Shown here one piece after another: positions 4,474 through 9,629 of a DNA stretch of 64,000 nt. The stretch is from Alphaproteobacteria bacterium (lineage in GTDB: Bacteria; Pseudomonadota; Alphaproteobacteria; UBA2966), in contig OZ219858.1 in assembly GCA_964291395.2 (NCBI GenBank), positions 1,264,953 to 1,328,952 on the forward strand. Direction: 5' to 3'. Under the pieces are notes generated by a model. That model was not told the DNA's origin and made no database searches. It saw nothing but the letters and a program-made list of their open reading frames with translations. Both the position numbers and the translations under genes were made by a program. Every line of letters begins with the position of its first letter. The stretch's first letter is position 1.

Positions 4474-4607
4474 CCGTCTTCCTCGCTCGAGGGCGGCGTC
4501 TCGCCCCACGTATGACAACATACATTGCTTCGGGAACGCTGTCCCGTGGCAGTGAGGATTGCGGACTATCGCTCTACGCGGTCCCGCCTTTCCATCTCCC
4601 TTCTATT

Positions 4608-4634
4608 AAATAGGGGGAGTCTCCGCTGAGACAA
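4608..4634 (-). promoter_or_regulatory. Possible RpoH (sigma32)-type promoter of ftsH
   Basis: Minus strand TTG-N16-CCCTATTT, resembling the alphaproteobacterial RpoH consensus; ftsH is a known heat-shock gene. Confidence 0.35.
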
Positions 4635-4892
4635 CCGGAAACGACATCAATGTCGCTACAAGTCGCGAGTTGGGTACTGTCCCAAATAGCGACGCCGTGT
4701 GGAGTAGGTCCCTGGGGTCGGACAGCTTCACGCGGCGGCTTTGACCGGCTTGCGGGGCTGTAGGCAACACGGCCCCAGCAAGGAGGCAGCGGCCGCCATT
4801 GCCGGCCTAGTCTTCATTCATGTCAAAACGCGCGCAGCCAACATGGGTGCGCTAACATTCCGTTCATTGAATAAGCGGGAGGAACACGAGTC

Positions 4893-5294
4893 ATGGAGCC
4901 GTTGACACTGGACGAAGCCGTGCGCATGGCTTCGGCAGCCAGAGCCGAGGCCGACAAACTGAATATCAAAGTCGCAATATCGATCCTCGATCCGCGGGGC
5001 GATGTCATCGTCGTACACCGTATGGACGGAGCGCTCTGGCGTTCGGTTCCCATTTCGGAGGGCAAGGCGGCCGCATCCGCGGCCTGGAATACTCCCAGCG
5101 GAGAACTTGCAGAACGCTGGAGCCAGCCGACCTTTCAAGCCCTCTCGATGAGGGAAAACGGGCGACTCATTCCCTGGCAGGGTGCGCTACCCATACGCCG
5201 AGGAGACGGCACGATGGTGGGTGCAATCGGTGTCAGCGGCGCAAAGTCCGAGTTGGACGAACAGGTCGCCTCTGCGGGCCTCGCCGCGCTCTAA
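4893..5294 (+). CDS. GlcG/HbpS family heme-binding protein
   Basis: RMDGA...KA and GAIGVSG motifs; GGAGG RBS upstream. Confidence 0.85.
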   Translation: MEPLTLDEAVRMASAARAEADKLNIKVAISILDPRGDVIVVHRMDGALWRSVPISEGKAAASAAWNTPSGELAERWSQPTFQALSMRENGRLIPWQGALPIRRGDGTMVGAIGVSGAKSELDEQVASAGLAAL

Positions 5295-5531
5295 CGGAGA
5301 TACCCTATTCTTCAGTTCCGACCTTCTAAGCACCGTTAGTCGTGGTGGGAGAGGGTGGCTTCGCCGAAGGAAGATAGTCCGCTAAGGGTCAGAAGTCGAA
5401 GTTCAGCTCCCTCTTCCGGTACGACCGAAAACGGAGCTCGAGCGGACGGCAGAACACCCGTCAACTCACCGGTTCGATTGTCGTTTGGCGTCAACGGGTA
5501 TAATTCATTGAAATATAATAAGAAAATGGTC

Positions 5532-5609
5532 TAGCGGCCCCAACGGGACTTGAGCCAGTGTCTCGACCTTGAAGGGGTCGTGCCCTGGACCTGACTACAC
5601 GACGGGGTC
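5532..5609 (-). pseudogene. Degenerate tRNA-Glu(TTC)
   Basis: GACCCCGTCGTGTAGTCAGGTCCAGGGCACGACCCCTTCAAGGTCGAGACACTGGCTCAAGTCCCGTTGGGGCCGCTA: intact anticodon stem CGACC/GGTCG with TTC, but U33->C, T-loop CTCAAGT, acceptor, D and T stem mismatches, and CTA in place of CCA. Confidence 0.8.
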
Positions 5610-5669
5610 GTGCCGGCCCCTCATCTAGACGCTCCGACCTGTTTACGGCGGCTCGATAGCGCTTCACAG

Positions 5670-5830
5670 GTAGCGGCCGGGCGGTCCGGTCTCGGCGGTG
5701 CAAAATTGATGTGCCATCCATGGCCTTTTGTCTGTTTCGGCGAGGGGCGGGGGATGTACGGGGTGGAGTTCCATGCGGCGGTTCGGCTCACGGTTGTCGA
5801 TGAGGGTCTGAGCCACAGGGAAGTGTCGTC
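5670..5830 (+). mobile_element. IS21-family left end and istA 5' fragment
   Basis: ATG at 5754 gives MYGVEFHAAVRLTVVDEGLSHREVS, an IstA-like N-terminus, then similarity stops; upstream gtagcggccgg...gcaaaattg resembles IS21 ends. Confidence 0.7.
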
Positions 5831-5924
5831 CCGAAGGACGCAATCGGGAAAGCGGCCTGCGGGCTTGCCATGCAGCCGTCGGGAGTGACAGGTTTCGGGT
5901 ATACTAGCAGGAAGGAGCCCGGCG

Positions 5925-6764
5925 ATAATTTCGCGCCGTCACTTTCTCGCGACCTCGGCCGCCTCGGTGCTGCTGCCCTCGGCGGCCCGCGCTGTCGGCG
6001 CGCCGATGCCGATCTTCGACGCCCATATCCATTTCAGCCACGACGCCGCCGAGCGGTTTTCCGCCGGCGAAGCTGTTGCCATTTTGGAGGAGGCGGGGCT
6101 GAAGCGGGCGCTGGTGTCGAGCTCGGGCGACGCTGGCACCCGCGCGCTCCACGCCGCGGCGCCTGACCTTGTCCTGCCCAGCCTGCGCCCCTATCGCCGG
6201 CGCGGCGAAATCCACAGCTGGGTCGACGATTCATCGGTGATCGACTTCCTCGAGGATCGTCTGAAGCGCTTCAAGTGGGTCGCGGTCGGCGAATTCCACC
6301 TCTTCGCCTCGCAAACCGATAAGGCCGTGCCGCGGCGCATGATCGAACTGGCGCAGCAGCACAATCTTCTCCTGCACGCCCATTCGGACGCCGGTGCCGT
6401 CGACAGGATCTTTGCCCAATGGCCGGAAGCGCGGGTGCTGTGGGCCCATGCAGGCTTCGTCGATCCGGATATCGTCGGCCCGATGCTCGGAAAGCACGCG
6501 AACCTGTGGACCGACCTGGCCTTCCGCAGCGAACACGCCTATGGCGGCCGGGTCGACGACGACTGGCGCAGCCTGTTCGCCGACTTCCCGGACCGCGTCA
6601 TGGTCGGCACCGACACCTTCACGCCGGAGCGCTGGCACTATGTCGTCGAGCACGCCGACTGGACCAGGCAATGGCTGACCGACCTGCCGCCCGACCTCGC
6701 CGAAAAAATCGCCTGGCGCAACGGCGAGGCGATGATCCGGCCGCACCTGGCGCAATTGCGCTAG
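5925..6764 (+). CDS. Tat-exported amidohydrolase (amidohydro_2/TatD-like TIM barrel)
   Basis: DAHIH, GEFH, HAHSD, WAHAG, GTD metal ligands; in-frame upstream SRRHFL twin-arginine motif; AAGGAG RBS 7 nt before an ATA codon at 5925. Confidence 0.8.
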   Translation: MISRRHFLATSAASVLLPSAARAVGAPMPIFDAHIHFSHDAAERFSAGEAVAILEEAGLKRALVSSSGDAGTRALHAAAPDLVLPSLRPYRRRGEIHSWVDDSSVIDFLEDRLKRFKWVAVGEFHLFASQTDKAVPRRMIELAQQHNLLLHAHSDAGAVDRIFAQWPEARVLWAHAGFVDPDIVGPMLGKHANLWTDLAFRSEHAYGGRVDDDWRSLFADFPDRVMVGTDTFTPERWHYVVEHADWTRQWLTDLPPDLAEKIAWRNGEAMIRPHLAQLR

Positions 6765-6771
6765 CGGCACG

Positions 6772-7182
6772 ATGGCCCGGTGGTGCCTCGGCGGACCAGC
6801 GCTGGCGGTCGTGCTTGCGCTCGTCCTCGCGACCGGCCAGGCGGCGGCCTGCGCCCGTCCGCAGGGCTGGACCGGCGGCGCGAGAATTGTCGGCGAGCTA
6901 TGGACGGCATGGTGGCGATCGAAACCCGCTGCCATCCCGGTCGGCGCGCATTTTTCCATCCGTTTCCATCTGTGCGGGCCGCCGGTCGGTCGGGTCGGGG
7001 TGCGCGGCTGGATGCCTGACCACCGGCACGGCATGAACTACCGGCCCGCGGTGACTCTGAGCGGCTTTTCCGGAACGGCCGAAGGCCTGATGTTCCACAT
7101 GCCGGGGCGCTGGCAGCTGATTCTGGATGTCCGCGGTGCGGCGGGCCGGGAGAAGCTGACCGCCGAAACGGTGCTGGAGTGA
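6772..7182 (+). CDS. Secreted YtkA/FixH-like protein with His/Met motifs
   Basis: Signal peptide; WMPDHRHGMNY and LMFHMPGRWQL motifs; tight operon spacing. Confidence 0.7.
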   Translation: MARWCLGGPALAVVLALVLATGQAAACARPQGWTGGARIVGELWTAWWRSKPAAIPVGAHFSIRFHLCGPPVGRVGVRGWMPDHRHGMNYRPAVTLSGFSGTAEGLMFHMPGRWQLILDVRGAAGREKLTAETVLE

Positions 7183-8393
7183 CACCCCGGCGTTCCGGCG
7201 CGTCCGTCGCCGCCCGGCTGTCGCGATTTATAATTGTAATCTTTGTACTTTCAGGCATCGCGGTGTCGGCGCCAGCGCTCGACTTCACTGCCGAGGAAGA
7301 ACGTCGGATCCTGCGCCATGGGCCGTGGCCGCCGGCCTCGCGGCCCGATCCGAGCAACCGGGTTTCCGGCAAACCGGCCGCCATCGCCTTCGGTCGGGCG
7401 CTGTTCTTCGATCCGCGCCTGTCGTTCTCCGGTGCGGTCTCCTGCGCAACTTGCCACCCACCGGGCCGGGCTTGGACCGACGGCCTGCCGCGTAGTCGCG
7501 GGCACCGGACCGTCGACCGCAACGCGCCCAGCCTGTTCAACCTGCGCTTCAACCGCTGGTTCGGCTGGGACGGCGCGCAGGACACGCTGTGGGCGCAAAA
7601 CCTGCGGCCCCTGCTCGATGGCCGTGAAATGGGCGTCGGCCCCAGCGGCGCGGCGCGGCTGGTCCGCTCCGACCGGCAGCTTTCCTGCAGCTACCGGCGC
7701 GCTTTCGGCGTAGCGCCTGGCGCAGATGACGCATGGATTTTCGTCGATCTCGGCAAGGCGCTGGCGGCGTTCTTGGAAACCCAGGTCACCGGCCGCACGC
7801 CGTTCGACGATTTCCGCGACGCCCTGGCGCGCAACGATGCGGCCGGCCAGGCTCGCTATCCTGCCGCCGCCGTGCGCGGCCTACGCCTGTTCGTGGGCCG
7901 GGGCAACTGCGCCTTCTGCCATTTCGGCCCGACCTTTACCAACGGCGAGTTCGCCGATGCCGGCGTGCCGCATTTCGTCGAACCCGGCCGGGTCGATCCC
8001 GGCCGGCACGGCGGCATCCGTAAATTGCGCCGGAGCCCGTTCACCTTGCTGGGCCGCTTCAACGACGATGCTCAACGCTCCACCGCCGCCAAGACACGCT
8101 ATGTCCGTCTGCGCCAAAGTAACTTCGGCGAGTTCCGGGTGCCGGGCCTGCGCAACGTAGCGCTCACCGCGCCCTACATGCATGCCGGCAGCCTCGAGAC
8201 GCTCGCCGACGTCGCCCGCCACTATTCGACGATCGACGAGGAACGGCTGCACGCCGGAGGTGAACGGATTTTGCGCCGTCTGGACCTGAGCGCGCGCGAA
8301 CAGGTCGACCTCGTAGCCTTTCTCGAAACGCTGACGGAAAAAACACCGCTTCACGAATTCGTAGAGAAAACCGGAAACGCCTTGTGTCGATAG
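7179..8393 (+). CDS. Di-heme cytochrome c peroxidase/MauG/MbnH family enzyme
   Basis: Signal peptide, LFFDPRLS, CATCH and CAFCH heme sites, WDG, FRVPGLRNVALTAPYMHAG; GTGA overlap with the upstream gene. Confidence 0.92.
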   Translation: MTPRRSGASVAARLSRFIIVIFVLSGIAVSAPALDFTAEEERRILRHGPWPPASRPDPSNRVSGKPAAIAFGRALFFDPRLSFSGAVSCATCHPPGRAWTDGLPRSRGHRTVDRNAPSLFNLRFNRWFGWDGAQDTLWAQNLRPLLDGREMGVGPSGAARLVRSDRQLSCSYRRAFGVAPGADDAWIFVDLGKALAAFLETQVTGRTPFDDFRDALARNDAAGQARYPAAAVRGLRLFVGRGNCAFCHFGPTFTNGEFADAGVPHFVEPGRVDPGRHGGIRKLRRSPFTLLGRFNDDAQRSTAAKTRYVRLRQSNFGEFRVPGLRNVALTAPYMHAGSLETLADVARHYSTIDEERLHAGGERILRRLDLSAREQVDLVAFLETLTEKTPLHEFVEKTGNALCR

Positions 8394-8397
8394 GTTC

Positions 8398-8490
8398 CAG
8401 TTGCCGCCTATGGCAGTCCAAATTCTTCAGGATCTACCACGCGGGGTGAACAATCCCTGGGTGTTTCCGGACCGTATCGTGAATACGCTG
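8398..8490 (+). pseudogene. Tyrosine recombinase/integrase internal fragment
   Basis: Translates QLPPMAVQILQDLPRGVNNPWVFPD, like the LPR..NPWVFP segment of phage-type integrases; no catalytic motifs around it. Confidence 0.5.
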
Positions 8491-8567
8491 ACCCGTTCTG
8501 AAAGTTGGTCGCCGTTTGCACGCTTGCGTGGAACAGGGACGTTCATGCCGGCCGAAAGATATTGACC

Positions 8568-9038
8568 TCAATCCCCCGCGAACGCGATCAATCGCCCACA
8601 GACGAGTGCTCCCAGCCAGCAAACCGTTGAGAGGATAGCATGACCGGCTAGGCGGGCGCGCGGGGCGTCCTTGAGCAGGAACCCGTAGACCCGGCACAGA
8701 GCGAGCGTAGACAGTACCCCGACAGCGATGAAGGTTAGCTTGAGCTGCAGAAATCCGACACCACTGTATTCCCGCGCCCGGATCGAGAACAGCAGCGGTC
8801 CCGTGAGCAGGGCAAGGGTCAGCCCGCTCGCTGCAACGGGCGTGAGCACCCGCACCACCGCTTCGCGAGAGATACCATGCCACACGCCAAGAAGCCGCAG
8901 ATTGAGCGGGACGACGGACCCGATCAGCAGGGCGATCGCGAAGATGTGCGCGGTGTTGACCGCGGCATAGACCCAGCGGGAACCCCGCAGAGCCTGCGCC
9001 AGGGCCGTCCCCTCGAGCGCCGCGAACAGGGCCTCCAA
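8568..9038 (-). CDS. Four-TM membrane protein (DUF6644/DUF2214-like)
   Basis: Hydrophobic segments, TAHIFAIALLIGS and FLQLKL motifs; TTG start 4 nt after the upstream stop inferred. Confidence 0.75.
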   Translation of the reverse strand: MEALFAALEGTALAQALRGSRWVYAAVNTAHIFAIALLIGSVVPLNLRLLGVWHGISREAVVRVLTPVAASGLTLALLTGPLLFSIRAREYSGVGFLQLKLTFIAVGVLSTLALCRVYGFLLKDAPRARLAGHAILSTVCWLGALVCGRLIAFAGD

Positions 9039-9042
9039 GGTC

Positions 9043-9411
9043 TCAGTCGCGCCCGGGGTAAAGGACGTACTCGCGTTTGCCCAGGAATAGCCGTTCCACC
9101 TTGATCCGTTTTTCCGACACATCGTCGGCCGGTTCACCGATCAACCGGATTTCGACCCCTTCGGCCAGATCGCCGTCCTTGAGGCCGGCGCGTTCGTTGC
9201 GCCAGGGTTGACCGACCTCGGCCGTCCATTCGTCGCCTTCCACGTCGATCTTCAGAATGCCGTGGGGATTGCCCAGGCGGACGGTCATGATAATGCCGGT
9301 CAGATCGATATTGCCGCCGGTCGTCCACGACCAGCCGTGATGGGCCAGAGTCCCGACCGTCGGAGCCGTGAGTCCCAGGGCCAGGACCGTGATGAACAAG
9401 AGCCTCATCAT
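9043..9411 (-). CDS. Secreted DUF6152-like protein
   Basis: AGGAG RBS, signal peptide ending TLA then HHGWS, and NPH motif. Confidence 0.8.
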   Translation of the reverse strand: MMRLLFITVLALGLTAPTVGTLAHHGWSWTTGGNIDLTGIIMTVRLGNPHGILKIDVEGDEWTAEVGQPWRNERAGLKDGDLAEGVEIRLIGEPADDVSEKRIKVERLFLGKREYVLYPGRD

Positions 9412-9629
9412 AGTGCTCCTCCGATGCCGCAAGCGTTGCTGGGAAGGTTGCGTCACGCGATCGGACATTCAAGCCGACACTTCCCAGACAACCGTCAAGT
9501 CCGTGGCGATTATACTCTTGGAGAATAGATGACCGAACTGTTAAGCAAGGCACGTGCCTGGGTGAGTAGCTGAAGGGGTTTCCTGCAAGTAAGGATCGCC
9601 GGCAGCTCGATGCCGGTCGTGATCATGTC

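Follow-up and report, generated by a model that had tools for sequence, protein, structure and literature searches.

What function could bring together, in one compact run of genes, an exported hydrolase, a small protein resembling copper carriers, and a two-heme enzyme of the MauG type? The question is raised by positions 5925-8393 of a 64,000-nucleotide stretch of contig OZ219858.1 from an alphaproteobacterium (hereafter, the window), where the open reading frame (ORF) listing places three plus-strand genes head to tail in the order hydrolase, YtkA-like protein, and two-heme protein (hereafter, the trio). Sequence comparison across genomes indicates that the trio is a widespread and real conserved unit, which is apparently undescribed. 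Its best explanation is a self-contained periplasmic three-protein complex with the architecture and chemistry proposed below, and we assign this explanation as a whole a probability of about 0.35. The features concerned are as follows.

5910..5917 (+), Shine-Dalgarno sequence GGAAGGAG, serving the first gene (read from the sequence)
5925..6764 (+), amidohydrolase-fold hydrolase, 279 amino acids, ATA start, twin-arginine signal
6772..7182 (+), YtkA-like His/Met beta-sandwich protein, 136 amino acids, Sec signal
7179..8393 (+), two-heme enzyme of the CCP_MauG family, 404 amino acids, Sec signal, two CxxCH motifs

Conservation and Spread of the Trio

A genome scan covering one genome per species, with patterns made from the two motifs of the small YtkA-like protein, gave at least 599 matching stretches, at least 597 of which were confirmed; the top 80 served as the loci analyzed (23 close and 57 distant). 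An earlier note on this DNA had proposed that the three genes form a new periplasmic system and had named their co-occurrence in other genomes beforehand as a check that could refute it. The genes proved to be adjacent and in the order hydrolase, small protein, and two-heme protein in 68 of the 80 loci, comprising all 23 close loci and 45 of the 57 distant loci. The 12 distant exceptions are four loci without an adjacent hydrolase gene, one with a partial two-heme match (L037), two at contig ends, and five in which the small protein stands alone. In L043, one of the four loci without an adjacent hydrolase gene, this gene is displaced approximately 1.1 kb upstream, behind a TctC gene.

Among the 80 loci, the trio is spread over alpha- and betaproteobacteria and Methylomirabilota. 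The titles of the carrier records include Rhodospirillales, Defluviicoccus, Reyranella, Burkholderiales, Nitrosomonadales, and Methylomirabilota/Rokubacteria, and some of the titles given to metagenome-assembled genomes look unreliable. Compared with the window proteins, the hydrolases of the distant loci are 51-67% identical, the two-heme proteins 48-63%, and the small proteins 35-50%; mean pairwise distances are 0.31, 0.42, and 0.51, respectively. The distance matrices of the three proteins correlate with r = 0.68-0.87, which none of 999 permutations reached, and shared ancestry alone would also give some correlation.

No fourth conserved gene was identified by clustering all ORFs in the 80 loci and scanning representatives against Pfam, and no mau genes recurred among the clusters of neighboring ORFs. 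The neighbors vary (TctC, SDR, NIPSNAP, NUDIX, and similar); the commonest is TctC, found on either strand in 13 of the 57 distant loci. A plasmid collection contained only two Variovorax paralogues (32-33% identity), in unannotated records and among different surrounding ORFs, and the clusters found in the ESM Atlas were all generic ("amidohydrolase" and "hypothetical protein / YtkA"). The literature searched, which lacks most subscription journals, yielded no description of the trio, and a similarity-network cluster containing the family may already be shown in the supplements of PMC6405878.

Natural Fusions

The genes of the trio also occur fused to each other. Among 83 longer relatives of the small protein, in which domains were assigned with profiles built in this analysis, 44 are small-domain/two-heme fusions, 34 are hydrolase/small-domain fusions, and five are other arrangements. 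Two of the 44 (P0466 and P0470) look like broken gene calls. The 29 junctions inspected (19 hydrolase/small-domain and 10 small-domain/two-heme) look genuine, with no second signal peptide in the linkers. Linkers of the hydrolase/small-domain type are rich in Ala, Pro, and Ser and keep the equivalent of Cys27 of the small protein. Small-domain/two-heme fusions have a single N-terminal signal peptide, and their beta-sandwich passes directly into the HGPWPP motif of the two-heme domain. In the FastTree phylogenies, the two-heme fusions fall into three all-fusion clades (37, 1, and 1 members) and the hydrolase fusions into about seven separate clades, some deep nodes of which are weakly supported. 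Individual examples include locus L029, where the hydrolase and the small protein form one 403-amino-acid ORF (5137-6348), and P0158, a small-protein/two-heme fusion from the window's own clade that is 85% identical to the window small protein and has the second signal peptide deleted.

Such fusion of the middle product to either neighbor argues strongly that the three proteins touch one another as they work and that the small domain sits between the other two; the small protein thus looks like the physical hub.

Gene Arrangement and the Start of the Hydrolase Gene

The tight coupling of the three genes claimed in the earlier note was confirmed from the sequence. Seven nucleotides separate the TAG of the hydrolase gene (6762-6764) from the ATG of the YtkA-like gene at 6772, and the two downstream genes overlap in a GTGA at 7179-7182, with the GTG of the two-heme gene at 7179 and the TGA of the YtkA-like gene at 7180-7182.

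The first canonical start codon of the hydrolase gene is GTG 5967, and the frame is open upstream to a TGA at 5886-5888. An SRRHFL twin-arginine motif and an Ala-rich stretch are encoded upstream of this GTG, and SRRHFL is included only if the hydrolase initiates at ATA 5925 or ATT 5928. The strong Shine-Dalgarno sequence GGAAGGAG at 5910-5917 sits 7-10 nucleotides before these two codons (7 nucleotides before the ATA). In 20 close relatives, the aligned start codon is ATG (10), ATA (7), ATC (2), or CTG (1), and GGAAGGAG is kept, exactly or nearly, upstream of it in most of them. Since the relatives have ATG, ATA, ATC, or CTG at exactly that codon, the alignment places the start of the hydrolase gene at 5925, at a non-canonical codon. 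The recurrence of weak start codons suggests tolerance of, or even selection for, a low rate of initiation at this gene. With the start at ATA 5925, which the 20 relatives back, all three proteins carry export signals as previously claimed: a twin-arginine translocation (Tat) signal on the hydrolase and ordinary Sec-type signals on the YtkA-like and two-heme proteins.

A pseudogene was considered as an explanation for the missing canonical start and ruled out, as relatives that are 85-94% identical carry the hydrolase ORF undamaged, with ATA, ATC, and CTG recurring at the same codon. The GC content is 0.68-0.69 over the three genes, compared to 0.60-0.66 in the flanks.

The Small YtkA-Like Protein

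The mature YtkA-like protein begins near Cys27, after the Sec signal, and contains the motifs MPxHxHGM (residues 81-88) and FHMPGRW (residues 108-114). The window protein scores below the cut-off of Pfam YtkA (PF13115; E = 0.086, 13.9 bits vs. 25.9), and 51 of 59 relatives match this family at E ≤ 0.1, the best at 1.1e-8. NCBIfam gave no match at E ≤ 1, and a PDB search with the single sequence gave only a chance match (E = 0.85); the profile of the small protein matches CrdA at E = 0.0012 in the PDB sequence search. At a predicted local distance difference test (pLDDT) score of 90.2, the structural model is a beta-sandwich, and its best Foldseek matches are structures 9ll2 and 9ll4 of CrdA, a copper-resistance protein of Helicobacter (E = 8.8e-5 and 1.3e-4; template modeling [TM] scores 0.51-0.67), followed by PmoD and CopC. 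The earlier description of the middle protein as a YtkA-like His/Met protein is thereby supported by the matches of its relatives, and the model resembles the periplasmic copper proteins CrdA, PmoD, and CopC. The family comprises 1290 clusters at E ≤ 1e-3 and 218 at E ≤ 1e-10 in a library clustered at 50% identity.

Seven residues (C27, P82, G105, H109, M110, G112, and W114) are invariant in 59 aligned sequences, and C68, M81, H84, H86, and M88 are each present in 58. The earlier note had also described the protein as Trp-rich, which holds across the family for W114 (59/59), whereas W44 (5/59), W47 (4/59), W48 (15/59), and W80 (5/59) are clade-specific. YtkA domains serve copper trafficking to CuA in Bacillus, and YcnJ carries YtkA as a tethered trafficking domain, according to the accessible part of PMC13344008.

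Two readings of the small protein as a more familiar protein type were examined. A lipoprotein, with Cys27 as the lipidated residue, was ruled out because the preceding residues are unfit as a lipobox and because the Cys is kept inside fusions, where lipidation is impossible. As for a CtaK-type CuA assembly factor, the small protein has no lipoprotein anchor, and no oxidase genes are present in the window or recur in the loci.

The Two-Heme Enzyme

The two-heme protein matches CCP_MauG (PF03150; E = 2.2e-37, 129.4 bits vs. a cut-off of 25.6) and falls below the NCBIfam cut-offs for both the MauG equivalog TIGR03791 (151.1 bits vs. 443.85) and MbnH TIGR04039 (149.9 bits vs. 362.85), so that by score it is not an equivalog of MauG or MbnH. 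Its Tyr349 lies 15 residues after Met334 of PYMH, in a column that is Tyr in MauG chains and 6e1c and Met in the peroxidases 2c1u and 3o5c. These HMMER alignments uphold the MauG register that had been proposed from the window sequence. Conservation was counted in the window protein and 66 relatives from the loci (n = 67): both CxxCH motifs and W127 are present in all 67, Y349 in at least 95%, and W130 in 53. The latter is the inter-heme Trp of WDG, which is kept in the window as previously stated. E150, M334, H335, and Y349 are invariant in 39 sequences, Gln140 aligns with a Gln of MauG, and Tyr is found at +15 in all 40 two-heme fusions (of 44) that reach PY[MF]H.

The best profile match of the two-heme protein, and its sole full-length alignment, is chain 6e1c ("Di-heme enzyme" in the PDB), which we take to be MbnH; BthA is a weaker match (66 bits). 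In the accessible part of PMC6405878, the six-coordinate heme is ligated by Met/His in peroxidases and by Tyr/His in MauG and BthA, and Tyr-to-His variants lose the bis-Fe(IV) signature. By alignment, the two-heme protein of the trio is therefore a putative His/Tyr (MauG/MbnH-like) enzyme, and its sequence predicts a competent peroxide site with no sign of a reductive-activation switch.

The simplest alternative is an ordinary cytochrome c peroxidase located beside two unrelated genes. PF03150 is present, the best single-sequence PDB match is the peroxidase 2c1u (E = 4.7e-30), and the window protein keeps a His at H109, presumably the position of the peroxidase distal His ligand. However, this His is found in only 9 of the 67 sequences, the Met ligand is replaced by Tyr across the family, and the gene order kept in 68 of 80 loci, together with the 78 natural fusions, argues against unrelated neighbors. 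We consider this alternative very improbable.

A second alternative links the peroxide site to a small molecule or metal chelate: the hydrolase would open an imported ligand, such as a lactam or a peptide that binds metal, the two-heme enzyme would oxidize the ligand or Cu(I), and the YtkA-like domain would capture the metal set free. In a simpler version, the two-heme enzyme would oxidize hub-held Cu(I) with H2O2 as a cuprous peroxidase, for which PcoA/PcoC is the comparison case. The copper-protein folds and the intact peroxide-activating pocket are consistent with this alternative, as is the combination of three activities in one stoichiometric unit with fusions typical of multi-step enzymes. 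On the other hand, the surroundings of the trio in the 80 loci contain no conserved gene for a transporter, a TonB-dependent receptor, or biosynthesis, the alternative comes without a candidate substrate, and a heme with His/Tyr ligation is poorly suited to accepting electrons in a steady flow (PMC6405878, accessible part). It appears quite improbable.

The N-terminal region of the two-heme protein contains a strongly conserved motif, HGPWPP ... DPSNRVSG (window 7305-7370, residues 43-64), in which G48, P49, W50, P51, D57, and N60 are invariant in 39 sequences. The printed alignments to solved structures begin at residues 64-68, apart from that of 4aal, which begins at 55 and has no conserved matches in residues 55-64, and none of them reaches the HGPWPP part. 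The motif may be a docking site of the small-protein hub, as the small domain is joined just before HGPWPP in the fusions.

The Hydrolase

The hydrolase passes the cut-off of Pfam PF04909 (Amidohydro_2; 33.5 bits vs. 26.4), its sole Pfam match. NCBIfam gave no match at E ≤ 1, and no relative was found in the PDB by sequence with either a single-sequence or a 32-sequence profile search. The model (pLDDT 88.0) is a TIM barrel, with LigJ, LigI, TatD, and uncharacterized amidohydrolases as its Foldseek neighbors (TM approximately 0.6, E down to 4.7e-8). H34, H36, E123, H151, H175, and D230 are invariant in 32 sequences, and the secondary structure of the model places them at barrel-strand ends. 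The pattern of HxH, Glu, His, His, and Asp is the ligand set of binuclear-metal hydrolases. Pfam score, modeled fold, and predicted metal ligands thus assign the hydrolase to the amidohydrolase superfamily, and from its residues it looks like a working binuclear-metal enzyme. Five Trp residues (W99, W173, W214, W237, and W250) are invariant, and W195 and W246 are found in 31 and 30 of the 32 sequences, respectively.

Members of the window's clade carry a twin-arginine signal on the hydrolase (window 5931-6005), and most distant relatives a Sec-type signal. By this comparison, the export route has switched within one orthologous family.

The features of the hydrolase raise the alternative that it is itself the client of the other two proteins. 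The YtkA-like domain would then be a tethered metallochaperone supplying metal to the binuclear site in the periplasm, the two-heme enzyme would oxidize that metal or a conserved Trp or Tyr of the hydrolase, and the mature hydrolase would act on a small molecule. Its position as the most conserved partner, its complete binuclear ligand set, and the seven conserved Trp residues listed above all favor this role, and Sec export in most distant relatives implies metallation outside the cytoplasm. The flexible Ala/Pro-rich linkers between the hydrolase and the YtkA-like domain resemble those of a tethered carrier. However, the His/Met sites of the small protein suggest copper, a metal that amidohydrolase-fold enzymes do not usually employ, and the 44 small-domain/two-heme fusions are left unexplained. 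Precedents include the tethered YtkA domain of YcnJ (PMC13344008, accessible part) and, as putative functional pairs, MauG-like genes that adjoin those of secreted metallohydrolases, namely BthA with a putative phosphatase (PMC6405878, accessible part) and Flavobacterium phoX (PMC8812569). Overall, we regard the hydrolase as client as a rather unlikely explanation.

Proposed Working of the Complex

In the explanation that we prefer, the small beta-sandwich would bind copper or another soft metal through M81, H84, H86, M88, H109, and M110 and would act as a hub that docks on both neighbors. The two-heme protein would be a His/Tyr oxidant of the MauG/MbnH type rather than a peroxide scavenger, and the hydrolase would be an active binuclear-metal enzyme. 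Taken jointly, this architecture of a copper-type hub, a His/Tyr oxidant, and an active binuclear hydrolase in a stoichiometric periplasmic complex is probable.

The chemistry is our preferred guess by analogy, and its parts taken together (Trp114 oxidation, deformylation, and a kynurenine copper site) are tentative and somewhat unlikely. The two-heme enzyme would activate H2O2 or O2 to reach a high-valent state, and a metal-site residue of the docked hub would then be oxidized. The candidate is Trp114, which would be converted to N-formylkynurenine in the way that MbnH acts on MbnP. Finally, the hydrolase would strip the formyl group to leave kynurenine, completing a His/Met/kynurenine copper site. 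In the free-tryptophan pathway, the conversion of Trp to kynurenine runs via N-formylkynurenine. The formyl group must be lost from N-formylkynurenine, which would therefore be a natural job for the hydrolase. No Trp of the small protein other than W114 is invariant, and W114 is located in the HMPGxW hairpin beside H109 and M110. According to the accessible part of a 2025 review (PMC11951088), MbnH makes Kyn174 of MbnP, the copper site of MbnP consists of His, Met, kynurenine, and water, and the mechanism of protein kynurenine formation is open. In its most specific form, the trio would be a dedicated machine for protein-bound kynurenine, in which a MauG-type oxidant and then a new kind of periplasmic protein-N-formylkynurenine deformylase act on a tethered YtkA-like copper domain; we hold this to be distinctly unlikely.

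Several observations weigh against the proposed working. The profile alignment shows Trp at the W114 position in CrdA as well, and no MauG-like partner of Helicobacter CrdA is shown in this analysis. Since CrdA has this Trp, W114 may simply be structural or a part of the fold, and the strand pattern of the model suggests that it probably faces the core. The Trp-rich motifs on which the earlier note based its argument for a substrate do not carry that argument, as W114 alone is conserved and is shared with CrdA. The hub protein matched MbnP, MopE, or CorA neither in the PDB sequence searches nor in the Foldseek search, and in five loci, belonging to two small clades, it stands alone with every motif preserved. 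It would also be unusual for a one-off substrate to be fused to its own modifying enzyme.

The assigned role of the hydrolase is likewise in question. It is not a member of the known kynurenine formamidase families (Pfam PF04909 only; no NCBIfam match at E ≤ 1), and a formamidase role is a functional hypothesis only. As the most conserved of the three proteins, it is a better fit for a main catalytic subunit than for a helper, and five invariant Trp lie in the hydrolase itself. No copper genes were found near the trio among the window ORFs scanned. In the accessible part of PMC11951088, MbnH is the sole enzyme named for the kynurenine of MbnP and no hydrolase is mentioned, so that the hydrolase may be dispensable.

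Comparison With Known Systems

Judged by sequence, the trio would work like systems composed of MauG or MbnH plus a partner while belonging to neither family, because it falls short of the NCBIfam cut-offs, lacks mau/mbn context, and has a partner of a different fold. There is precedent, by analogy, for pairing a MauG-like enzyme with a small secreted copper protein, the folds of these copper proteins being unrelated. Like the trio, MbnH/MbnP consists of a MauG-like two-heme enzyme encoded beside a small exported metal-binding protein, and the Tyr of 6e1c is in the same register as Tyr349 of the window. Unlike MbnH/MbnP, the trio has a YtkA-like partner that matches MbnP in neither sequence nor fold, no WxW motif, a constant third member (the hydrolase), no mbn genes, and a score below the TIGR04039 cut-off. 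The likeness to MauG and methylamine dehydrogenase consists of two CxxCH motifs, Tyr at the ligand column, an inter-heme Trp (in the window), and the distal Glu and Gln, whereas the trio is below the TIGR03791 cut-off, has no mau or amine dehydrogenase genes, and has other partners. In canonical cytochrome c peroxidases, the ligand column that is Tyr in the window is Met, while the inter-heme Trp of WDG is common to both.

In CorA/CorB and MopE/SACCP, the gene for a secreted copper protein is transcribed together with that for a MauG-like cytochrome, which has been proposed as the kynurenine maker (PMC3912023, accessible part). The coupling of a secreted copper protein to a MauG-like gene is shared with the trio, but these systems have other copper-protein folds and no hydrolase and are confined to methanotrophs, whereas the trio occurs in Rhodospirillales-type, Burkholderiales, Reyranella, and Methylomirabilota records. 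BthA with its phosphatase (PMC6405878, accessible part) and Flavobacterium phoX (PMC8812569) resemble the trio in placing a His/Tyr two-heme enzyme beside an exported metallohydrolase, and differ in that the hydrolases are phosphatases, not of the amidohydrolase fold, and no YtkA-like hub is present.

The small protein shares with CtaK, the C-terminal domain of YcnJ, and CrdA a beta-sandwich in which a Met/His motif occupies the same loop and hairpin, and, as in the trio, copper proteins with YtkA domains are often tethered to a partner. In contrast to CtaK, YcnJ, and CrdA, it lacks a lipoprotein signal, is not linked to genes for cytochrome oxidase or efflux, and has a signature of its own, consisting of MPxHxHGM, HMPGxW, and a Cys pair (C27 in 59/59 and C68 in 58/59).

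Flanking Genes and Intergenic Regions

The 38 further ORFs of the window that were scanned are housekeeping genes, with no mau, mbn, or amine dehydrogenase genes among them, in agreement with the earlier note on the absence of mau and mbn. Scans against Rfam and for promoters and terminators (4500-9600 and 5200-8700) gave only a sub-threshold tRNA-like match and one terminator-like site, and terminator-like sites around the trio are fewer than in shuffled sequence. The tRNA-like match (5535-5609, minus strand) scores 23.7 bits against an Rfam gathering score of 29 (E = 0.14) and was not called by ARAGORN; it may represent the decayed remains of a tRNA gene within the 630-nucleotide spacer upstream of the trio.

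Upstream of this spacer, the plus strand encodes an HbpS-like protein of the heme-degrading type (4893-5294; PF03928, E = 1.2e-33), and tblastn identified this gene in 0 of the 80 loci. Downstream, on the minus strand, are genes for a 189-amino-acid membrane protein without a Pfam family (8568-9137) and a DUF6152 protein (9043-9468), the predicted mature end of which begins with two His. As listed, these two ORFs overlap by 95 nucleotides, and one start is probably later. The pair adjoins the trio in 7 of the 23 close loci and in the distant locus L063 (31% identity), and any connection with metal handling is no more than a guess.

Implications for Periplasmic Protein Oxidation and Copper Handling

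MauG-type two-heme enzymes carry out long-range protein oxidation. To our knowledge, few of their partner systems are known, namely MauG with its dehydrogenase and MbnH with MbnP; BthA has no known function. With at least 597 confirmed stretches in the genome scan, the trio adds a widespread partner set of constant composition, and the single-chain fusions of the hub with each neighbor could be used directly as constructs for structural work and mass spectrometry.

If kynurenine formation is completed by the hydrolase, the trio would address a step that is called unresolved in the accessible part of the 2025 review (PMC11951088). As a kynurenine machine, it would provide the hydrolytic step so far missing from the formation of kynurenine cofactors and would represent a third, widespread class of MauG-type partner system, with the client domain as a hub that is fused to one enzyme or the other. 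Should the hydrolase instead be the client, the trio would become the first tested example of a metallohydrolase matured by an enzyme of the MauG type. Both outcomes are relevant to how soil Burkholderiales and the window's Rhodospirillales-type lineage handle copper in the periplasm.

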